From: a virus
Lineage: Duplodnaviria; Heunggongvirae; Uroviricota; Caudoviricetes
IMG/VR virus record: IMGVR_UViG_3300011115_000934
Location: 33,983-97,982 of that record
Reading direction: 5' to 3' (one strand)
DNA length: 64,000 nt
Shown: positions 55,697 to 64,000 of the stretch, one piece after another
Position numbering within the stretch: the stretch's first letter is position 1
Layout: each line of letters opens with the position of its first letter
Position numbers and translations under genes: made by a program
The notes under the pieces: model-generated
Databases searched by the model: none
What the model saw: only the letters and a program-made list of their open reading frames with translations
Told to the model about the DNA's origin: nothing

Positions 55697-56062
55697 ATGT
55701 ACAAATCAACAACAACAAATTTAAACGGCTACTCAGGAACAGTAGGAACAGCAACTCCACTATCAGGAAACATTAATACGATAGGATCTTCAGGAACAGG
55801 GTTAACCACGTCAGGAAATTCATCATATTCATTATCAAATCAAATTCAAAATAACATGACACCAAAACAAGTAAACGTAGCAGTATTTACAATCACAAGA
55901 GACAAGAAAACAAATGAAATCAATTCAACAAAATTTGTAAAAGAATTATGGATTGAGCAAAAGAATGGAATATCAATCGACTTACTAGTTGCAAAACAAT
56001 TAGGAACTGATTTTGATCCAGAAACAACTATAATTAAAGTACTTTCTACAGTAAGTTTCTAA
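55697..56062 (+). CDS. Hypothetical protein
   Basis: S/T/G-rich N-terminal half. Confidence 0.55.
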   Translation: MYKSTTTNLNGYSGTVGTATPLSGNINTIGSSGTGLTTSGNSSYSLSNQIQNNMTPKQVNVAVFTITRDKKTNEINSTKFVKELWIEQKNGISIDLLVAKQLGTDFDPETTIIKVLSTVSF

Positions 56063-56331
56063 TGGCACAGTACAGAAAGAAGCCAGTTGTAATTGAAGCA
56101 GTTCAATTAGAAGACCTAGAAGTCTATACTTTAATGGCAATCCAACAATTTGTTGGATTAGCTAATGACAAGGTACTAGCTGTAAGCGATGGAGTGTTGA
56201 TTAATACCCTAGAAGGTACCATGAAAGCTTCAATAGGTGATTTCATTATAAAAGGAGTACAAGGAGAATTTTATCCATGCAAACCAGATATTTTTGAAAA
56301 AACTTACGAAAAAGTTGCAGAAGAAGAATAA
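56062..56331 (+). CDS. Conserved phage hypothetical protein (RKKPVVIEA family)
   Basis: YRKKPVVIEAVQ...TLEGTMKASIGDFIIKGVQGEFYPCKPDIFEKTYE. Confidence 0.8.
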   Translation: MAQYRKKPVVIEAVQLEDLEVYTLMAIQQFVGLANDKVLAVSDGVLINTLEGTMKASIGDFIIKGVQGEFYPCKPDIFEKTYEKVAEEE

Positions 56332-56373
56332 AGTTCGTATCTTTAAGTATTATTAATAACAAATAAAACAAAA

Positions 56374-56535
56374 ATGAAAAAATTAGTTTTAGTATTAGCT
56401 GTAATGGCTTTAGTGGCAGTAAGTTGTAATAAGGTGACTCCGTCAGCTAAATTAACAACAGTAGATTCAACAGCAGTAGCAACTGATTCAGTATCGGTTG
56501 ACACAACTGCAGTAGATACTACAGCTGTAAAATAA
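56374..56535 (+). CDS. Small Bacteroidota-type lipoprotein (53 aa; absent from the ORF track)
   Basis: MKKLVLVLAVMALVAVSC lipobox followed by VDSTAVATDSVSVDTTAVDTTAVK*; upstream CGTATCTTTA motif. Confidence 0.8.
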   Translation: MKKLVLVLAVMALVAVSCNKVTPSAKLTTVDSTAVATDSVSVDTTAVDTTAVK

Positions 56536-56644
56536 AACATCACCCAGTAGATAGGTCCGCCAAGAAAGTCTTTAAACAACGTGGGAACTGCGGCTCTCCC
56601 AATGTGGCTGGAATGTTTTATAAAAGTTACCAATGCTCGCTGTT

Positions 56645-56768
56645 AGTTGATGATGGTGCTAAACGGATGAAAAAGGGTTTATAGTAATCTAGAGTACAAG
56701 CAAATCATCAATCAGAAACCCTGATCTTGTATAAGCCCCGTAACTGATAACTCGGAAGGCTACAAGAA
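56645..56768 (+). ncRNA. Candidate pseudoknotted ncRNA
   Basis: TTGATGAT/ATCATCAA crossed by AGGGTTT/AAACCCT, followed by a CTTGTA/TACAAG hairpin. Confidence 0.45.
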
Positions 56769-56789
56769 AGACCAAGGTTGGTAAATAAA

Positions 56790-56877
56790 GAATCGGTTGG
56801 TGTCAACGGGACGAGTCCTGCTAGGGTTAACATGGACGGTAAGTCTGGATGAGGGTTCGAATCCCTCACCGATTCCA
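56790..56877 (+). ncRNA. Atypical tRNA-like RNA with a long variable arm (weak GCT anticodon arm)
   Basis: Acceptor (G)AATCGGT/ACCGATT(C), T arm GAGGG-TTCGAAT-CCCTC, variable hairpin GGAC/GTCT. Confidence 0.55.
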
Positions 56878-57036
56878 AAATAAAAACTACTTGAGTAAGT
56901 GGGAGTGGTCAATCAACAACCCAAAGAAGTTTCAGGTAAATCTATATGATACAGGACAGGCGAGCCTATAATAGAGTAAGTAGCAAGTTGATATGTTTTT
57001 TCAAGGATTGGATAGTTTTTAATATCAGCGAAAAAT

Positions 57037-57179
57037 AGTCAGGTGGCGGAAATGGAAGACGCGGGATAACTGTTAAAGGGTCCTTATAAACGGAGGTGAT
57101 GCTCCGGTCTGTAGTTGATTTGAGGGTTAGATCGAATCACGCAACTAAACTCATGCAGGTTCGAGTCCTGTCCTGACTA
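57037..57179 (+). ncRNA. Oversized (143 nt) tRNA-Leu-like RNA
   Basis: AGTCAGG/CCTGACT acceptor, Leu-type D arm GCGGAAATGGAAGACGC, T arm GCAGG-TTCGAGT-CCTGT, about 70-nt two-hairpin variable region. Confidence 0.65.
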
Positions 57180-57222
57180 CAAATTTAAGATTACCGTTCT
57201 TTGAATTTAAAAAAACAAAACT

Positions 57223-57528
57223 ATGGAACAAATTTTAGCATTTGTTTTAGGTGTTGGTGCAGTTGCCTTTGTATGGGCAGTTGTGGTAGCGTTTAAGACA
57301 ACAAAAAAAGTAAAACAGATTGAACAAGCAATCACAGGTCATCAAGAATGGATTCAAAGAAACGATGAAATGGTTAACAGAAGAATTGATCAAGAAATTG
57401 ATCGAGTAGACCTAATCTATACAAACGTACTATCAACTCTAGATTCTAGAATAGATAAATTAGATGCAAAATTCTGCCGTGACGGAAAAGCATTAACTGA
57501 GAAATCAAAGGAATTTTTAAAAGGATAA
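57223..57528 (+). CDS. Membrane-anchored coiled-coil protein
   Basis: N-terminal TM ILAFVLGVGAVAFVWAVVVAF. Confidence 0.65.
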   Translation: MEQILAFVLGVGAVAFVWAVVVAFKTTKKVKQIEQAITGHQEWIQRNDEMVNRRIDQEIDRVDLIYTNVLSTLDSRIDKLDAKFCRDGKALTEKSKEFLKG

Positions 57529-57589
57529 ATTAACCCAAAGAACGGTATTCTTTTTAGAAACAATCCTATTTATAGGAAAATATATACAA

Positions 57590-57766
57590 ATGAAAAAATC
57601 ACAATTAGTTCAAATTATAAAAGAGTCTTTAAACGAATCACAGAAAGACACCATAGCTCAGAAACAATTCAAAATGAATTACAGTCAATTGGGTAAGAAT
57701 GAAAAGGAATGGGTTGACGACGAGATTGATAATATAGAATATAAAAAGAATAAAGCAAAAAAATAA
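57590..57766 (+). CDS. Small protein (58 aa; absent from the ORF track), candidate head-internal
   Basis: MKKSQLVQIIKESLNE...; TATTTATA upstream. Confidence 0.65.
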   Translation: MKKSQLVQIIKESLNESQKDTIAQKQFKMNYSQLGKNEKEWVDDEIDNIEYKKNKAKK

Positions 57767-57827
57767 ATCAACCATTAGTTGGTTCGGAAAGGAAAAGTTC
57801 ATATATTTATATATAGAAACAAATAAA

Positions 57828-57983
57828 ATGAAAGCACAACAAAACATACATCAACTTAATAACGTAGCGCAGAGAGCCATTAGTATATGGTCGGATTCGT
57901 TATGTAATGATATTATATTTGAAGGAAGTGTTCTTGGCTTTACGTATAATAACGAACCGAAACAAACCAAAACCGGGATATGA
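57828..57983 (+). CDS. Candidate leader peptide (51 aa)
   Basis: MKAQQNIHQLNNVAQRAISIWSDSLCNDIIFEGSVLGFTYNNEPKQTKTGI*, followed 34 nt later by a terminator. Confidence 0.55.
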   Translation: MKAQQNIHQLNNVAQRAISIWSDSLCNDIIFEGSVLGFTYNNEPKQTKTGI

Positions 57984-58016
57984 TATAAATTATTTATACA
58001 TATAAATTCTAATAAG

Positions 58017-58050
58017 AACCCGGATCAAATAAAAAAGATTCGGGTTTTTT
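58017..58050 (+). terminator. Rho-independent terminator (candidate attenuator)
   Basis: AACCCGGATC-loop-GATTCGGGTT followed by TTTT. Confidence 0.85.
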
Positions 58051-58060
58051 ATTAAAAAAA

Positions 58061-58097
58061 AGTTGCTAGAAAGAAAAAAAGATCATATCTTTAGGCA
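58061..58097 (+). promoter_or_regulatory. Representative of the TTG-N(~19)-TA(T/C)nTTTA host-sigma-like promoter class
   Basis: GTTGC...ATATCTTTA; similar motifs near 39362, 54530, 56315, 58680 and 62348. Resembles the Bacteroidota -33 TTG / -7 TAnnTTTG consensus. Confidence 0.55.
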
Positions 58098-58108
58098 TAG
58101 AAATAAAA

Positions 58109-58672
58109 ATGATAGGAATTTACAAAATTACAAATCCGACAGGCAGAGTCTATATAGGGCAGAGCACTAATGTAGAACGAAGAAAGGAAGAGTATTCTGG
58201 TAAAAATAAAGGGAAAGGGCAGGTAGCATTGTGCTTGTCTTTAGAAAAATACGGTTTCTCTCAACATACTTTTGAAGTAATAGAAGAATGTGCTATTGAG
58301 AATTTAAACAAGAGAGAAAGATATTGGCAAGATTATTATAATGTATTAAAAGAAGGGTTAAATTGTAGACTTACAGGAACCGAGGATAAATCGGGACTAT
58401 TTTCTAAAGAAAGTATAGAGAAGAGAGTCGCTAATACAGACTACAAAGCCTTTCAGAAAAAAAGACTTGCAAGCAGAGATGAACACTTAATTTCTAAAAA
58501 GAAATACAAACCAATCCTCCAATATACAAAAGAGGGGATATTTGTTAAAGAGTGGGAATCCCTTAAACAAGCCGCTGACAGTTTAAAACTATATTATGTA
58601 AATATTACTAATTGCTTAAAAGGTAGGCAAAGGACAGCAGGAGGATTTGCTTGGGAGTATAAAAAAAATTAA
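58109..58672 (+). CDS. GIY-YIG homing endonuclease (SegB-like position in the tRNA region)
   Basis: MIGIYKITNPTGRVYIGQS, ERYWQD, GLNC, NUMOD1 tail (TAGGFAWEY); paralogue of 38730. Confidence 0.92.
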   Translation: MIGIYKITNPTGRVYIGQSTNVERRKEEYSGKNKGKGQVALCLSLEKYGFSQHTFEVIEECAIENLNKRERYWQDYYNVLKEGLNCRLTGTEDKSGLFSKESIEKRVANTDYKAFQKKRLASRDEHLISKKKYKPILQYTKEGIFVKEWESLKQAADSLKLYYVNITNCLKGRQRTAGGFAWEYKKN

Positions 58673-58759
58673 AAAAAAGTTGCTTCGTATTAAATAAAGT
58701 ATTATCTTTATTGAGTAGAAAATAACAAAGGATCTTTGACATATTGGATAAAATTAAAC

Positions 58760-58843
58760 GGAGAAGATCCGGCTGGATCAGGAGCTGCTCTTGAAAAGCA
58801 GTAGCGGGTTACACCGTTGTGAGTTCGAGTCTCACCTTCTCTT
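58760..58843 (+). tRNA. tRNA-Ser(TGA)
   Basis: CTGCT-CTTGAAA-AGCAG anticodon arm, long variable arm, GTGAG-TTCGAGT-CTCAC. Confidence 0.88.
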
Positions 58844-58848
58844 CAATT

Positions 58849-58919
58849 TGCCTGTTCGTATAAAGGTAGTACAATGCTCTTTGACAGCATCGGAGGAGGA
58901 TCGTTACCTCCACAGGCAA
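58849..58919 (+). tRNA. tRNA-Gln(TTG)
   Basis: TGCCTGT/ACAGGCA; ATGCT-CTTTGAC-AGCAT; atypical T loop ATCGTTA. Confidence 0.85.
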
Positions 58920-58928
58920 CAAATAATT

Positions 58929-59074
58929 GTAAGTATTGAAAGCCCATCCCAACACTTGATCAGTAAGTAGGACGGTTAGTAAAGAAAGCATTATCAGTAA
59001 GTAGTGGAGAAATCCATGCGGAGAAAACGATGCAAGACGCAAGTACAGGGAACCAGCCCGATGGCTTTGCTTAC
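58929..59074 (+). ncRNA. Candidate structured spacer RNA
   Basis: Closing helices GTAAGT/GCTTAC and AAAGCC/GGCTTT; internal TGGA-GAAA-TCCA hairpin. Confidence 0.4.
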
Positions 59075-59081
59075 GAAATTA

Positions 59082-59157
59082 CTGGATGTAGAGGAGCCCG
59101 GTTTATCTCGCTGGCCTTGGACGCTAGAGCACGCAGGTTCGAATCCTGCCATCCAGA
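59082..59157 (+). tRNA. tRNA-Pro(TGG)
   Basis: CTGGATG/CATCCAG; CTGGC-CTTGGAC-GCTAG. Confidence 0.92.
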
Positions 59158-59162
59158 CAATC

Positions 59163-59233
59163 GCCCTCTAGGCTTTAAAGTGAAGCACGATACTTTTAAT
59201 ATCGGGAAGAAGGAGCATTACCTTCAGGGGGTA
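59163..59233 (+). tRNA. tRNA-Lys(TTT)
   Basis: CGATA-CTTTTAA-TATCG; atypical T loop AGCATTA. Confidence 0.8.
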
Positions 59234-59287
59234 CAAAGTAGTTTTGAGGTTGGCGAATTCTACTATAAAAAAATAATCCATCTGCCA

Positions 59288-59358
59288 GCCTCGTTGGCGT
59301 AATGGGAGCGTATTTCTTTTACATGGAAATGGCAGTAGTTCGATTCTACTACGAGGTA
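59288..59358 (+). tRNA. tRNA-Val(TAC)
   Basis: GCCTCGT/ACGAGGT; TTTCT-TTTACAT-GGAAA. Confidence 0.85.
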
Positions 59359-59363
59359 CAAAA

Positions 59364-59434
59364 GGGGACGACAGGCAAGGTGCCGAGCAGCTCTGTAAAA
59401 GCTCACTGGGTAGGTTCGATTCCTACCGGCCCCA
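59364..59434 (+). tRNA. tRNA-Tyr(GTA), short variable loop
   Basis: AGCT-CTGTAAA-AGCT; GTAGG-TTCGATT-CCTAC. Confidence 0.8.
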
Positions 59435-59447
59435 CTTTATTAACCTT

Positions 59448-59520
59448 GGACCTTTGGTATAGCTGGTGCGTACGCTAGTCTGAAGAACTAGAGGAGTAGG
59501 TTCGATTCCTACAGGGTCCA
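59448..59520 (+). tRNA. tRNA-Phe(GAA)
   Basis: GGACCTT/AGGGTCC; CTAGT-CTGAAGA-ACTAG. Confidence 0.9.
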
Positions 59521-59670
59521 CAAACAAGGAAACAACCCCAGAGTTGGTAAGCGCTTACCCGGACTCAAGAGAAGTAAAGTTACTAGATGGGTGCGTAACG
59601 CCTTGGACTATTATGATTTAACAATGATACGAGCTTCATACGTTCGCAAAATAACATAATAGTCAAAATT

Positions 59671-59742
59671 GGACTTGTAGCTCAGAGGAAGAGCGTTTGC
59701 CTGTTAAGCAAAGGGTCGGGATTTCGAAATTCCCCAAGTCCG
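59671..59742 (+). tRNA. tRNA-Asn(GTT)
   Basis: GGACTTG/CAAGTCC; TTTGC-CTGTTAA-GCAAA. Confidence 0.92.
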
Positions 59743-59750
59743 CAAAAAAT

Positions 59751-59904
59751 GTTCGTATAGATGTGCTGTGGATACGCAGGAAACACATCGAGTGGGTTAA
59801 TGATGGTAGTAGGTATACAACACTCCTTAATACTAGGATTGGAGAGAAGAGCTGATGAATACTACAAGTAATTAACAAGGTTGGTTCGATTCCAGCTACG
59901 GGCG
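59751..59904 (+). ncRNA. Oversized (154 nt) tRNA-like RNA without a canonical anticodon arm
   Basis: GTTCGTA/TACGGGC acceptor, GTTGG-TTCGATT-CCAGC T arm; internal GATGTG/CACATC, GTTAAT/ATTAAC and GTAGTA/TACTAC helices. Confidence 0.6.
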
Positions 59905-59910
59905 CAAAAT

Positions 59911-59984
59911 AGGTAATTAGCTCAATTGGTTAGAGCACTCGCCTGATACGTGAGAGGTTATAGGTTCGATTCCTATATTACCTA
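59911..59984 (+). tRNA. tRNA-Ile(GAT)
   Basis: AGGTAAT/ATTACCT; CTCGC-CTGATAC-GTGAG. Confidence 0.93.
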
Positions 59985-59990
59985 CAAAAT

Positions 59991-60073
59991 GGAAAGTAAA
60001 TCAACTAGGAGTTGAGACCGCTTGCTAAGCGTATCGTGCCTTCGGGCATGGGGTTCGATACCTCTGCTTTCCT
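59991..60073 (+). tRNA. tRNA-Ser(GCT)
   Basis: GGAAAGT/GCTTTCC; loop TTGCTAA; variable arm GTGCC-TTCG-GGCAT. Confidence 0.85.
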
Positions 60074-60287
60074 CAATGTGTTGTTCCCTTGAGAAAGGAA
60101 TAAATATTAAGAGTATTAAATTGATATACTACAACACAGATGAACCCTCAGCATCAATTAAAAACCTATTCCCCGTCCTCACAAAGCATCTAAGGAATGC
60201 AGGAGTAGAATAGTACGTTCGGGGCCTCAGCGGTAAGACGCCGTAAAATCTAAAGTACAACGATAAGTTAATGGGTTCTTATCAACT

Positions 60288-60357
60288 ACCGACTTGATCT
60301 AGTGATCGAGGATATCTCATAAGTATTCTCAGACAAGAGCGTAACTTGTAGTCGGTA
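60288..60357 (+). ncRNA. Non-canonical cloverleaf with tRNA-Pyl-like architecture and a CAT anticodon
   Basis: ACCGACT-T-GATC-TAGT-GATC-G-AGGATAT-CTCATAA-GTATTCT-CAG-ACAAG-AGCGTAA-CTTGT-AGTCGGT-A. Confidence 0.65.
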
Positions 60358-60415
60358 CTGCATCTCCCAAGGGAGAAGGCTCTGGTTGACGATCTGACCT
60401 TATAGATCGTAACAT

Positions 60416-60489
60416 GGTGATTGTAGCTGAATTGGTAAAGCGTCTGATTGTGGTTCAGGAGATTGTGGGTTCGAGTCCCATCTTTCACA
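60416..60489 (+). tRNA. tRNA-His(GTG)
   Basis: TCTGA-TTGTGGT-TCAGG; encoded G-1 opposite A73; two T-T mismatches in the acceptor stem. Confidence 0.82.
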
Positions 60490-60495
60490 CTTAAC

Positions 60496-60568
60496 ATCCC
60501 TGTGGTGAAATGGTAAACACAACGAGTTTAAGCCTCGTAAGCTGCTGGTTCGACTCCAGTCAGGGATA
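60496..60568 (+). tRNA. tRNA-Leu(TAA), short variable loop
   Basis: ATCCCTG/CAGGGAT; ACGAG-TTTAAGC-CTCGT; variable loop AAGCT. Confidence 0.88.
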
Positions 60569-60573
60569 CAAAT

Positions 60574-60645
60574 GGTCTTATAGTTTAATTGGAAAAACTT
60601 ATCGCTACGAACGATAGAACAAAGGTTCGACTCCTTTTAAGACTT
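60574..60645 (+). tRNA. tRNA-Arg(ACG)
   Basis: TATCG-CTACGAA-CGATA. Confidence 0.9.
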
Positions 60646-60646
60646 C

Positions 60647-60827
60647 AAAATATAATTACAAAGCGTAGGTAAGAAGACGTGGAGAGACGTTACGCAAGGG
60701 TACACACTAAGGATAGGACCTCAATCTGCAAGCTTCAAAGCCCAGAGGAATCCCGACTCTCTAATGGTGTGTGAAGCACTGAGCAATCAGAAACCAGATT
60801 CCTGATAAAACTTACTAATTATATTTT
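60647..60827 (+). ncRNA. Candidate structured spacer RNA
   Basis: 12-bp closing stem AAAATATAATTA/TAATTATATTTT; GCGTA/TACGC, ACGT-GGAGAG-ACGT and CTGA-GCAA-TCAG hairpins. Confidence 0.5.
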
Positions 60828-60831
60828 AACC

Positions 60832-60903
60832 GCCCTATTAGTTAAACGGATATAACGAATCTCTTCTAAAGATTAATTCTAGGTTCGATTCCTGGATGGG
60901 GTA
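60832..60903 (+). tRNA. tRNA-Arg(TCT)
   Basis: AATCT-CTTCTAA-AGATT. Confidence 0.9.
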
Positions 60904-60977
60904 CAAAAAAATCGTCTTGGTAAAACAAGTTAAGTGACAGGGCCAAGTCACGGTAGAGTAAGCGATACTCTACAAAT

Positions 60978-61048
60978 GCGTTCCACAGACAAGGTGTCGG
61001 TACGGTCTCCAAAACTGTTACGGCTGGGTTCGATTCCTAGGGTTCGCG
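60978..61048 (+). tRNA. tRNA-Trp(CCA)
   Basis: ACGGT-CTCCAAA-ACTGT; CTGGG-TTCGATT-CCTAG; two T-T mismatches in the acceptor stem. Confidence 0.85.
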
Positions 61049-61126
61049 CAAATAAATTGTTCATAACTTTATGGCTAGTTCTATAATTTCTTAAAATTTT
61101 CGTATATTTATACTAAACGATAAGAT

Positions 61127-61828
61127 ATGAAAAAGATATGTACTAGATGTAAGGAAGAGAAACACTTAGATGAATTTAGTAATTATAAAAGCTCTAAAGA
61201 TGGTAAGCACATTTATTGTAAAGTATGTTCTAGGGATAAATCAAAAGAAAGATACTCTCAAGATGCTGAAAGAATAAAAAAGTATCGTGAGGATAATAAA
61301 GAAAAGATAAAAGAAATTAACAAAGCTTATAGTCTTAAAAATAAAGAAATACTAAATGCTCGTTCTAAGCAATGGAATTTAGATAATAAAGAAAAAAGAC
61401 AAGAGTATGTAAAGCAATGGGCTAGAGAAAATTACGAAAAGAATCATTCAAAAGTAAGAGAATATCAAAATACATACAATAGAAGTAAGTATGCCAACGA
61501 TCCTCTTTATAGACTTGCTCAACAACTTCGATCATTAATATACCAGAGTTTTAAGTATAAGTATAAAAAGCAAAAAAGAACACAAACAATACTAGGATGT
61601 ACTTATGAAGAGTTCAGAGTATACCTAGAGTCAAAATTTGAACCTTGGATGAATTGGGAAAACCAAGGATTGTACAACGGAGATTTTAATTTTGGTTGGG
61701 ACATGGATCATATAGTACCAGCTTCAAGTGCAAAAACTGAAGAGGAGATTTGTAAATTAAATCATTACACCAACTTACAACCCCTGTGTTCTAAAGTAAA
61801 TAGAGATATAAAGAAAAATAAAATATAA
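61127..61828 (+). CDS. HNH homing endonuclease with an N-terminal Zn ribbon
   Basis: CTRC...YCKVC, Lys/Glu-rich helical linker, WDMDHIVP...HYTNLQPLCSKVN; has its own CGTATATTTATA motif upstream. Confidence 0.85.
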   Translation: MKKICTRCKEEKHLDEFSNYKSSKDGKHIYCKVCSRDKSKERYSQDAERIKKYREDNKEKIKEINKAYSLKNKEILNARSKQWNLDNKEKRQEYVKQWARENYEKNHSKVREYQNTYNRSKYANDPLYRLAQQLRSLIYQSFKYKYKKQKRTQTILGCTYEEFRVYLESKFEPWMNWENQGLYNGDFNFGWDMDHIVPASSAKTEEEICKLNHYTNLQPLCSKVNRDIKKNKI

Positions 61829-61832
61829 AGTC

Positions 61833-62339
61833 ATGTCAAAATATCAGAGAACCTTAGTTATTGATTCAAGCTTTATGGCTCGCAGCATCATATCGACTGA
61901 GCGTGCTTTCGTGATTTCGTATAAGGGTAATGCAGAAGTTATAGCTGAACATCCAGAAACATTCGGATTAGTAAATCCAAAATTAGAAATTTTTAAACCT
62001 TCAATCATTAGGGTTTATAAATACGTAAAACAAAACATTCAAAAAGTTCCTCTAACAAGAGAGAATGTTTATCGAAGAGATAATTACGAATGTGTTTATT
62101 GTGGATCAAGCCACATCAAGTCACTAACACTTGATCATGTCATTCCACAATCAAAAGGTGGAGAAAATGCTTGGGATAATTTAGTAACAGCTTGTAGAAG
62201 TTGCAATTCAGAAAAAGCAGATTTAACTCTGGAGGAATATGGTAAAGAAATAGTAGAACCAAAAAGACCTCATTATCTGATGCTGATGAAACAACTAACA
62301 CACATTCCAGTGGAATGGGAAAAGTTTTTATTTTTCTAA
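61833..62339 (+). CDS. HNH endonuclease (McrA/HNH_5-like)
   Basis: RDNYECVYCG...TLDHVIPQSKGGENAWDNLVTACRSCN. Confidence 0.92.
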   Translation: MSKYQRTLVIDSSFMARSIISTERAFVISYKGNAEVIAEHPETFGLVNPKLEIFKPSIIRVYKYVKQNIQKVPLTRENVYRRDNYECVYCGSSHIKSLTLDHVIPQSKGGENAWDNLVTACRSCNSEKADLTLEEYGKEIVEPKRPHYLMLMKQLTHIPVEWEKFLFF

Positions 62340-62469
62340 CAAAAAGTTTGGATATTAGAAAATAAGTTCGTATATTTAAGTATAAGAAAAAATAAATCAC
62401 CTACTACGTAACCAACCGGTAAAAAAAATGGACACGTACTGTCTGGCAGGTCAGGCTAGGTGAAAATAT

Positions 62470-62579
62470 AAAAACTGATTTAGAGAACATATGCGGGAAA
62501 TAGTTGCAGCATAGATTAAAGTGCATACAACAAGTATATGGGTCCTACGATAAGGATACAAATCAACTAAATCAGTTTT
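62470..62579 (+). ncRNA. Candidate structured spacer RNA
   Basis: Perfect 13-bp closing stem AAAACTGATTTAG/CTAAATCAGTTTT enclosing several short hairpins. Confidence 0.5.
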
Positions 62580-62584
62580 AATTT

Positions 62585-62654
62585 GGGCAGGATGGTTATG
62601 GAGACCGGCAGGATTGCAAACTCTGCAGAGTAAGTTCGATTCTTACCTTGCCCT
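62585..62654 (+). tRNA. tRNA-Cys(GCA)
   Basis: GGGCAGG/CTTGCCC, loop TTGCAAA, U73 discriminator. Confidence 0.85.
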
Positions 62655-62749
62655 CATTGAAGGTTCGACCCTCTACCAAATGTGTTACACCCACAGATGG
62701 ACAACGAGAGGGAGCTACCGATTGATAAGTGACCGCACATGCGGTAAAT

Positions 62750-62823
62750 GCCCGAGTGGTGGAACTGGTAGACACGGCAGCCTTAGAAGCTGTAAATTGG
62801 GGGTTCGATTCCCCCCTTGGGTA
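62750..62823 (+). tRNA. tRNA-Leu(TAG), short variable loop
   Basis: GCCCGAG/CTTGGGT; GCAGC-CTTAGAA-GCTGT; variable loop AAATT. Confidence 0.88.
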
Positions 62824-62828
62824 CAAAA

Positions 62829-62895
62829 TTACAGTTAGCTTATAGTAAAGCAGCAGGGGCTAACCTGGAGAACGGATACGAGAACCGGCTGTAAT
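62829..62895 (+). pseudogene. Degenerate tRNA-like RNA
   Basis: TTACAGT/GCTGTAA acceptor, GCT/AGC D stem, CAGG-GGCTAA-CCTG 6-nt loop, aberrant T arm. Confidence 0.5.
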
Positions 62896-62902
62896 TTAAT
62901 TT

Positions 62903-62975
62903 GCTTCCTTAGCTCAATTGGCAGAGCACTTGTTTTGTAAACAAGAGGTTATCGGATCGTGGCCGGTAGGAAGCT
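62903..62975 (+). tRNA. tRNA-Thr(TGT)
   Basis: GCTTCCT/AGGAAGC; CTTGT-TTTGTAA-ACAAG; atypical T loop ATCGTGG. Confidence 0.88.
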
Positions 62976-63060
62976 CAAAAGATGAATTCGATCACACCTA
63001 GGGTTAGTGATTTAATTAAAGGATCCATTCAGTACACAAGGCTGAGATTCATCTTCAATT

Positions 63061-63133
63061 GCGATTATAGTGTTCAACGGTAGCACGTGGGCCTTCCAAG
63101 TCTGAAGTTTCGGTTCGAATCCGAATAATCGCT
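63061..63133 (+). tRNA. tRNA-Gly(TCC)
   Basis: GCGATTA/TAATCGC, loop CTTCCAA, U73. Confidence 0.9.
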
Positions 63134-63184
63134 CAGGGGTATGTAGGAGCCCAAGAGTATGTGATGAGCATACACCTACAACTT

Positions 63185-63256
63185 GCTGCCATCGTCTAAC
63201 GGCTAGGACCTATGGTTTTCATCCATAAAATCGGAGTTCGATTCTCCGTGGCAGTA
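63185..63256 (+). tRNA. tRNA-Glu(TTC)
   Basis: TATGG-TTTTCAT-CCATA. Confidence 0.92.
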
Positions 63257-63260
63257 CGAA

Positions 63261-63307
63261 ACCAGAAAGGCCATTGTTCACAACCTCTGGTGCGAAAAAG
63301 GTGAACA
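63261..63307 (+). ncRNA. Candidate H-type pseudoknot
   Basis: ACCAGA/TCTGGT crossed by TGTTCAC/GTGAACA. Confidence 0.45.
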
Positions 63308-63366
63308 CGAGGTTAAGGTACACTCGTAATAACAATATCTTGACAACCTGGAACAGACAGGTAACT

Positions 63367-63439
63367 GGGGTCATAGCTCAATTGGCTGAGCGCTATCTTT
63401 GCACGGTAGAGGATGTGGGTTCGAATCCCATTGGCTCCA
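63367..63439 (+). tRNA. tRNA-Ala(TGC)
   Basis: GGGGTCA/TGGCTCC with G3-U70; loop TTTGCAC. Confidence 0.93.
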
Positions 63440-63440
63440 C

Positions 63441-63593
63441 AAAACATTTAGTGAGGTAAGACTGGTAGGCTTTTAATCCTAAACCTAGAAATAGGAGGGA
63501 GAGGCTAACGAAAGAACCAAACGAGTAGTTAGTTGAAGGGATTTACTTGAAAGTTAAGTTTGGTGTAGAGTAAATTGTGTAGTTAGATGTTTT
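63441..63593 (+). ncRNA. Candidate kissing-loop spacer RNA
   Basis: Closing stem AAAACATTTA/TAGATGTTTT; loop-loop complement ACCAAAC/GTTTGGT. Confidence 0.5.
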
Positions 63594-63597
63594 AATT

Positions 63598-63670
63598 GGC
63601 TGAGAGGTGTTATAGGTAACATGCTGCACTGTCACTGCAGAGATTGCGGGTTCGATGCCCGTGTCAGCCG
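63598..63670 (+). tRNA. tRNA-Asp(GTC)
   Basis: CTGCA-CTGTCAC-TGCAG; G73. Confidence 0.9.
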
Positions 63671-63676
63671 CTATAT

Positions 63677-63750
63677 CGCGAGTTGGTAGAAGATGGTATC
63701 TCGCTAGGCTCATAACCTAGAGGTCGGGGGTTCGAATCCCTCACTCGCTA
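63677..63750 (+). tRNA. tRNA-Met(CAT), initiator-like
   Basis: Unpaired C1-T72; CTAGG-CTCATAA-CCTAG. Confidence 0.88.
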
Positions 63751-63755
63751 CAAAG

Positions 63756-63829
63756 GTCCTTTTAGCTCAGTTGGTCAGAGCAGCTCGCTCATAACGAGAA
63801 GGTCACAGGTTCGAGCCCTGTATAGGACA
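63756..63829 (+). tRNA. tRNA-Met(CAT) elongator (or Ile2 if lysidine-modified)
   Basis: CTCG-CTCATAA-CGAG; ACAGG-TTCGAGC-CCTGT. Confidence 0.88.
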
Positions 63830-64000
63830 CTAAATTTATCCGATATGAGAGCAATTCAATCGTCTCCAATGTAGTTTTAGCTATTAGCTAAAATTATGAC
63901 TCAGAAATTGAGAATTTGGAGAGTAGTCCCTACCAGCATGACTGGTGTTCAGGCTCCCACGTTTTTTGTTGAAACAACAGAAAATGGTAGAGAAGAAGCA

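Follow-up and report, generated by a model that had tools for sequence, protein, structure and literature searches.

In the textbook view, the tRNAs of bacterial systems share a canonical core. All known bacterial tRNAs are likewise described as canonical in the abstract of one study (PMC11551756). Two described tRNAs, tRNA-Pyl and the mitochondrial tRNA-Ser(UCN), have a compact design in common, the mitochondrial tRNA still being L-shaped, and the anticodon CUA, the discriminator G73 and the pair G1:C72 are universal features of tRNA-Pyl (PMC7609411). The word "phage" is absent from that 2020 review of non-canonical tRNAs, and our own full-text search of the literature, some queries of which were too broad, found no description of a compact-core phage tRNA.

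Here, we analyse a compact gene with the anticodon CAU that lies in the tRNA array of a Bacteroidota phage, within the window (the whole 64,000-nt stretch of DNA under study, to which coordinates refer unless stated otherwise). An earlier note, made from the sequence alone, had listed features of Methanosarcina tRNA-Pyl and claimed a match "point for point". The listed features are correct when compared with real genomes: a pattern built from them retrieved 53 loci, nearly all in Methanosarcinaceae and Methanococcoides with a few in Bacillota, and the common pylT sequence has U8, GAUC-AUGUA-GAUC, G26, a 6-bp anticodon stem, CUCUAAA, CAG and G73. The match itself stands for the compact architecture and breaks down for the length of the anticodon stem and the size of the D loop. 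With tRNA-Pyl of Methanosarcina barkeri and M. mazei, the phage gene shares the 7/5 acceptor/T arrangement, the single U linking acceptor and D arm, an identical D stem (G10-A11-U12-C13 / G22-A23-U24-C25) followed by G26, a tiny D loop without G18G19, an elongated anticodon stem, the CAG variable loop, the lack of T-Psi-C, and a length of about 69-70 nt without CCA. In contrast, it has the anticodon CAU instead of CUA, A73 instead of G73, a weak 1:72 pair instead of G1:C72, 7-8 instead of 6 bp in the anticodon stem, 3-4 instead of 5 nt in the D loop, and the T loop AGCRUAA instead of UUAGAUU; furthermore, and unlike tRNA-Pyl, it is carried by a Bacteroidota phage without PylRS.

The likeness was quantified by two covariance models, one built from the phage compact family (R1) and the other from ten pylT sequences (R2). 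R1 assigns 98 bits to the compact gene and 33.6 bits to Methanosarcina pylT, the best canonical array tRNA reaching 23.5 bits with filters off and the tRNA-Lys at 59163-59234 24 bits. Over positions 56000-64000, R2 ranks the compact gene first with 32.4 bits, followed by a Trp(CCA)-like gene (60978-61048, 31.9 bits) and a tRNA-Cys (62586-62653, 30.4 bits), with canonical tRNAs at no more than 18.9 bits. The search with covariance models that the earlier note had proposed thus came out divided, as the pylT-built model recognises the gene whereas the general tRNA model of Rfam (RF00005) has no match at 60288-60357, either at the gathering threshold or at E <= 10. The architectural likeness to tRNA-Pyl is real and measurable, and two further genes of the array share it. 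The absence of a PylRS, noted before for the window, holds for the entire 162-kb phage genome, in which the class II PheRS/PylRS-type core (PF01409) has no match, control genomes all being positive. Since G73, G1:C72 and CUA are absent, the compact gene should not be a PylRS substrate, and judged by its sequence it does not belong to the tRNA-Pyl family.

Structure of the compact gene and its genomic setting

The virus record is a complete genome (161,982 bp, direct terminal repeats, 35% G+C) encoding a tail sheath, a lysozyme-bearing protein and a ribonucleotide reductase, and the window comprises its bases 33983-97982. The closest isolate is Flavobacterium phage vB_FspM_immuto, whose sheath protein is 65% identical; this isolate has only four tRNAs, the compact CAU gene not being among them, and a nucleotide search of isolated phages, near and distant, returned no match to the gene. 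In the window, the tRNA array spans approximately 56.8-63.8 kb, where default ARAGORN and Rfam report 19 tRNAs each. At 56791-56876, ARAGORN places an 86-nt "tRNA-Pro(AGG)" that Rfam does not report and that forms no clean cloverleaf. The compact gene is organised as follows:

60288-60357, + strand: compact tRNA gene with anticodon CAU, 70 nt from position 1 to discriminator A73
60288-60294 pairing with 60350-60356, + strand: acceptor stem, 7 bp
60295, + strand: single linker U8
60296-60307, + strand: D arm GATC-TAGT-GATC with a 4-bp stem
60308, + strand: G between D arm and anticodon stem, unpaired or paired
60309-60315 pairing with 60323-60329, + strand: anticodon stem, 7 bp
60316-60322, + strand: anticodon loop CTCATAA, with the anticodon CAT at 60318-60320
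60330-60332, + strand: variable region CAG
60333-60349, + strand: T arm, 5-bp stem and loop AGCGTAA
60350-60358, + strand: acceptor 3' strand, A73 (60357) and C74 (60358)

Default ARAGORN calls nothing at these positions. The gene is detected by its -mt, -mtmam and -ps80 modes only, and the right 5' end is found by the two mitochondrial modes only, which report a tRNA-Met(cat) at 60288-60358 with an identical 5' end. Minimum-free-energy folding yields this cloverleaf (-22.8 kcal/mol, z = -3.1 against dinucleotide shuffles, 2 of 200 of which are as stable), so that both the complete cloverleaf described earlier, whose sequence we confirmed, and its stability relative to shuffled controls hold up. 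An optional eighth anticodon-stem pair, G60308:C60330, would shrink the variable region to 2 nt, and the D loop, 4 nt in the window, has 3 nt (TAG) in most relatives. Of the general tRNA features, the gene has the 7-bp acceptor, a T stem of 5 bp together with G53:C61, and an anticodon loop of 7 nt in which U33 and a purine at 37 are present. The elbow set G18, G19, T54, Psi55 and C56 is incomplete, with one D-loop G, C56 and R57 being kept.

From these features, a reduced elbow is probably formed by the single D-loop G together with the T loop AGCRUAA (C56, R57). In the T loop, read as A54-G55-C56-R57-U58-A59-A60, an A54-U58 pair could take the place of T54-A58, and one G of the D loop UAG(U) would be available to form an elbow pair of the G19:C56 type. 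With the D stem directly abutting the anticodon stem, the two would stack, giving a predicted stack of up to 12 layers, compared with 10 in canonical tRNA and 11 in tRNA-Pyl. Because covariation backs only the third and fourth anticodon-stem pairs, the top two pairs may instead act as a 26/44-like junction. We know of no tRNA with such a D/anticodon-stack geometry that has been demonstrated to work on a bacterial ribosome.

The flanks of the gene match those of the array, in which N73 is followed by C (usually CAAA) in all 19 canonical tRNAs and T stands at -1 in most; the compact gene has T at -1 and A73-C74. An acceptor of 8 bp (T-1:A73) with a C discriminator, as drawn by RNAalifold, was considered and found unlikely, as position -1 is C in one relative (L027) and T(-1)/N73-C is common throughout the array.

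Conservation, covariation and autonomy

Relatives of the compact CAU gene occur in 59 other viral or metagenomic contigs. Two independent pattern scans of IMG/VR, one with the 5' half fixed and the anticodon free, the other with the 3' half fixed and the D arm free, returned an identical set of 28 contigs, and a scan of metagenomes leaving the entire anticodon stem-loop free added 31. Together with the window, these yield 22 distinct variants, 21 of which have the same cloverleaf as their minimum-free-energy fold. On 15 distinct sequences, 99.2% of the cells in the covariation table are standard pairs, and both sides have changed in seven pairs (four of seven in the acceptor, one in the anticodon stem, two of five in the T stem). 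Among 500 shuffles, none attained the covariation score, and pairing falls to 27-43% when the 3' partners are slid out of register; covariation among related phages, which had been suggested as a check, thus bears out the helices in question. In the anticodon stem, pairs three and four show changes from G-C to A-U and from G.U to A-U. The 1:72 pair is weak throughout the family; G-C never occurs there, the pairs seen being A-U, G.U and U-A. Divergence within the family is shallow, mean column identity being 93%, and since the D stem and the four pairs beside the anticodon loop never vary, covariation says nothing on those pairs.

What does not vary is equally characteristic. Every one of the 59 other contigs has CTCATAA, even those from the metagenome scan, in which the loop was free to vary, and in the scans with the anticodon or the whole loop free, no anticodon other than CAU was found on the compact scaffold. 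Around it, 15 nt (ATAT-CTCATAA-GTAT) are constant in nearly all family members. The GATC stem of the D arm is invariant even in the scan leaving the D arm free, whereas the linker U8 is missing in two variants. The T loop reads AGCRTAA throughout, and G53:C61, C3:G70, A5:U68, A73 and C74 are invariant. The compact CAU gene is real and under selection for its cloverleaf. The description of a cryptic, non-standard third CAU tRNA in the array is upheld in that the gene is conserved and escapes both default ARAGORN and Rfam. Among prokaryotes, one genome from each of 185,579 species gave no match to the 5'-half pattern with the anticodon free, a result that excludes close sequence relatives only; at the level of similarity searched, the gene is phage-specific.

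In a looser scan, only CTCATAA, CAG and AGCRTAA were required, and the matches were scored by R1. It retrieved a gene in L135 (10934-11004, 52.8 bits, 63% G+C) with no other tRNA in the locus, one in L131 (7851-7923, 47.5 bits) that sits between tRNA-Leu(UAA) and tRNA-Ile(UAU), and one in L132 (3571-3643, 31.7 bits), from a 360-kb phage, which ARAGORN calls tRNA-Met. All three are CAU tRNAs with CAG and AGCRUAA as in the compact family, and their stems and G+C differ. Since these contigs come from unrelated phages, the combination of the AGCRUAA T loop with CAU extends beyond the Immutovirus-like clade.

The array between 56.8 and 63.8 kb was compared with those of nine relatives (L003, L006, L011, L018, L023, L025, L031, L037 and L044). 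These arrays are mosaics, in which some canonical tRNAs are 100% identical from phage to phage and others, in a shared slot, differ beyond recognition. Two homing endonuclease genes lie within the array:

58109-58672: GIY-YIG homing endonuclease gene
61833-62339: HNH homing endonuclease gene

The mosaic structure and the endonuclease genes inside the array suggest that cassettes may be exchanged among the arrays of related phages. The compact gene is the sole array gene recognisable in all nine relatives, with 52-68 of its 70 bases identical, whereas unrelated alleles have taken the place of several canonical tRNAs.

The syntenic order in related arrays is Ile(GAU), Ser(GCU), compact CAU gene and His. 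For instance, in L023, L025 and L041 a spacer of 3 nt separates tRNA-Ser(GCU) from the compact gene, and the distance to the tRNA-His behind it is at most approximately 8 nt; in L018, L031, L037 and L038, the sequence upstream is unrelated to that of the window. A first alignment had suggested a larger RNA of about 200 nt (60160-60359) with the cloverleaf as its 3' domain. This was rejected because L023, L025, L041, L018 and others carry the cloverleaf without the upstream 127 nt; the two are separate elements, and the cloverleaf behaves as an autonomous tRNA unit.

The neighbourhood holds two further elements. Directly upstream (60160-60287) lies a conserved, ORF-free structured RNA of 127 nt, which about 13 relatives share while others lack it, and which has no Rfam match at E <= 10. 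Three hairpins and one long-range stem covary in it: GCAU-CUAAGGA-AUGC changes to GUGU..ACAC, GCG-GUAAGA-CGC to GUG..CAC, GAUAAG..CUUAUC to GAUAGGG..CCCUAUC, and a GUAC/GUAC stem to GUGC/GCAC. Downstream, a 58-nt spacer (60359-60416) separates the compact tRNA from tRNA-His; it is near-identical in L002, L006, L026 and L027, is replaced elsewhere, and contains the short hairpins CTCCC..GGGAG and GATCT..AGATC.

Proposed decoding roles and competing readings

Besides the compact gene, the array contains two further CAU genes and five genes of atypical structure:

59163-59234: tRNA-Lys(UUU), T loop AGCAUUA, resembling AGCGUAA; found by ARAGORN -mt and -ps80; R1 24 bits
59364-59435: tRNA-Tyr(GUA), no long variable arm, small D loop; R2 18.8 bits
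59991-60075: tRNA-Ser(GCU), long variable arm, odd D arm; found by ARAGORN -ps80
60978-61049: Trp(CCA)-like, two U.U acceptor mismatches, small D loop; R2 31.9 bits
62585-62654: tRNA-Cys(GCA), A.C mismatch at the base of the anticodon stem, small D loop; R2 30.4 bits
63677-63750: initiator-like CAU tRNA, C1xU72 mismatch (not C1xA72), CGCG 5' end; identical in L003
63756-63829: CAU tRNA with a canonical body

The Lys, Tyr, Ser(GCU) and Trp genes escape the default tools and were found by relaxed or mitochondrial settings of ARAGORN. Default ARAGORN and Rfam miss the Lys gene, which folds into a cloverleaf (z = -2.9); Ser(GCU) is missed by default ARAGORN and by Rfam at the gathering threshold, and Cys(GCA) is reported by Rfam only (34 bits). 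Without its atypical genes, the array would lack Lys, Tyr, Trp and Cys; with them, every one of the 20 amino acids is covered. Ser(GCU), too, is present only in atypical form. Because Lys, Tyr, Trp and Cys are also atypical, the simplest reading of the compact gene would be an ordinary decoding role in a complete, structurally diverged set; in this phage, atypical shape appears to go along with decoding.

With respect to the kind of role, AUA makes up 25.6 of every 1000 codons, a frequency close to that of AUU and higher than that of AUG. Given that AUA is common and that the only other Ile tRNA is GAU, one CAU gene should be a lysidine-dependent Ile2, and the three genes most likely represent an initiator, Ile2 and an elongator Met. 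The initiator-like gene at 63677-63750 has only two G:C pairs beside the loop and an unusual D arm. For the compact gene, an initiator role was rejected, as its 1:72 positions are always paired, if weakly, and no G:C pair lies beside the loop (U-A, A-U, U.G), where bacterial initiators have three in a row; the one initiator feature that it does show, purine 11:pyrimidine 24 (A11:U24 in the GAUC stem), is common to tRNA-Pyl. The best E. coli match of the gene at 63756 is a tRNA-Ile(CAT) of the PGAP annotation, a weak match (78% over 63 nt, E = 0.2) with a shared acceptor 5' strand and D arm, and phage records mostly carry "tRNA-Met" as an uninformative default label. This gives a weak hint that 63756-63829 is Ile2, and the Met and Ile2 roles could be swapped. 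With the initiator assigned to 63677 and Ile2 to 63756, elongator Met is left for the compact gene.

Our preferred reading, to which we assign a probability of roughly 0.55, is that the compact gene is a working compact-core elongator tRNA, charged with Met by the host MetRS. It would be transcribed within the polycistronic phage tRNA array, excised by host RNase P and 3' processing enzymes, completed at its 3' end by the host CCA-adding enzyme, charged by host MetRS and used to decode AUG, with 63677-63750 serving as the initiator and 63756-63829 as the lysidine-dependent reader of AUA; expression, processing, Met charging and use by the ribosome are what we infer. No MetRS, TilS, PylRS-type core or CCA-adding enzyme was found in the phage genome and, as the phage lacks MetRS, TilS and the CCA-adding enzyme, those of the host must act. 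Charging by host MetRS is plausible because an unmodified CAU together with A73 would be enough for this enzyme. Recognition by MetRS depends nearly entirely on CAU: this anticodon on a tRNA-Val body gives full MetRS activity, equal to tRNA-Met, and a tRNA-Ile2 with unmodified C34 accepts Met (PMC9976931). The invariance of A73, C3:G70 and A5:U68 also fits a Met role. Against the Met reading stand the predicted stack of up to 12 layers, two above canonical tRNA and one above tRNA-Pyl, the weak Ile2 assignment of 63756, and A1:U72, since in tRNA-Trp this pair can act, depending on context, as an antideterminant for E. coli MetRS (PMC9976931).

Among the alternatives, the one that survives best, which we nonetheless regard as unlikely, exchanges the two elongator roles: the compact tRNA would be tRNA-Ile2, its C34 converted to lysidine by the host TilS so that it is charged by IleRS and reads AUA, and 63756 would be the elongator Met. 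AUA is as frequent as AUU and must be read by exactly one non-initiator CAU gene, and tRNA-Ile(GAU) stands two genes ahead of the compact gene. The near-invariant ATAT-CTCATAA-GTAT would suit an enzyme that recognises the anticodon stem, as has been described for short-form TilS. However, the unusual body would have to be tolerated by two enzymes, TilS and IleRS, and it lacks the D-loop/core determinants G16, D20 and D21 used by E. coli IleRS (PMC9976931); moreover, it is 63756 whose acceptor stem and D arm look like those of an annotated Ile2-type tRNA. In addition, the L131 relative already adjoins a tRNA-Ile(UAU), so that no Ile2 role would be needed there.

Somewhat less likely still is a tRNA mimic that would undergo tRNA processing but not decode. 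It would act as a sponge or decoy against a host defence aimed at Met or fMet tRNAs, such as an anticodon nuclease, a PIN toxin or an acetyltransferase, or else be some other protein-binding RNA. The idea draws on a set of RNA-repair-type genes at genome bases ~100058-102954, 2-5 kb downstream of the array and beyond the window end:

L137, 2159-5055: metallophosphoesterase (PF00149), AAA_33 kinase-like protein and RNA ligase (PF09414, 70 bits, PHA02142 OB fold)

This module is compatible with, and suggests, possible pressure from host defences that cut tRNAs, under which the nuclease-resistant decoder or decoy proposed in the earlier note would be conceivable; moreover, the anticodon stem-loop sequence is invariant and the geometry is unlike that of every tRNA known to work in bacteria. 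Yet the acceptor covaries, and A73 and C74 are fixed, as expected of an aminoacylated RNA and needless for a decoy; Lys, Tyr, Trp and Cys, which canonical genes leave uncovered, are provided by further atypical genes in the array; and no candidate nuclease or toxin is known for the host.

All readings other than Met, Ile2 and mimic are, even when taken together, highly improbable. A non-functional sequence, be it a tRNA pseudogene in decay or a cloverleaf arisen by chance, perhaps inside the minus-strand ORF 60282-60497, would account for the lack of default ARAGORN and Rfam matches and for the overlap with that ORF of 71 codons, but we consider it very improbable, as 59 other contigs preserve every helix, with compensatory changes, and the gene is better conserved than the neighbouring canonical tRNAs; the ORF itself is not conserved, since the sequence just past C74 differs among relatives. 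The most improbable reading, a true tRNA-Pyl homologue in an orthogonal pair with a PylRS-like enzyme, which would ignore the anticodon and so tolerate CAU, finds support in the reciprocal scores of 33.6 and 32.4 bits and in the shared U8, GAUC/GAUC D stem, G26 and CAG of Methanosarcina pylT, but is opposed by the absent identity elements, a complete phage genome without a class II PheRS/PylRS-type core, an anticodon stem one pair longer, and flavobacteria that, to our knowledge, are not known to use pyrrolysine.

Implications and relation to known tRNAs

Mitochondria and the Pyl system are evidently not the only settings in which a compact core can persist. Five of the approximately 25 genes in this array need relaxed or mitochondrial settings, and phage tRNA counts made by tRNAscan or ARAGORN are underestimates. 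For tRNA engineering, the compact gene also provides a naturally occurring scaffold, and it lends itself to testing whether the bodies of phage tRNAs diverge to evade host defences that target tRNAs. A broader proposal, speculative and in our own estimate doubtful, is that Bacteroidota phages, along with scattered others, may maintain a scaffold of the Pyl/mitochondrial type for sense decoding, the body of which would escape host tRNA-targeting defences or quality control while charging proceeds via the anticodon; if true, this would be a naturally evolved, partly orthogonal tRNA chassis.

With the mammalian mitochondrial tRNA-Ser(UCN) ("type I"), the phage compact tRNA has in common the 1-nt linker, the small D loop, the extended anticodon stem and the 3-nt variable region. 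In contrast, the mitochondrial tRNA keeps G18, G19 and T-Psi-C, which the phage RNA lacks, its anticodon stem has 6 bp as opposed to 7-8, and the genetic system and the amino acid differ. With the bacterial elongator tRNA-Met and tRNA-Ile2 (CAU), the shared features are CUCAUAA with U33 and A37, A73, G53:C61, the 7-bp acceptor and the 5-bp T stem, and C3:G70 and A5:U68 match E. coli tRNA-Met as well; unlike these tRNAs, the compact gene has a compact core without a ninth nucleotide, neither G18G19 nor T-Psi-C, and a longer anticodon stem. Finally, phage tRNAs such as the variants of T5 replace host tRNAs that were cut by defence nucleases, and the phage described here resembles these cases in that its array tRNAs are unlike those of the host and its genome contains RNA-repair enzymes. 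However, while the T5-type cases carry anticodon-loop substitutions in canonical bodies, in the compact CAU gene it is the architecture of the whole core that has changed.
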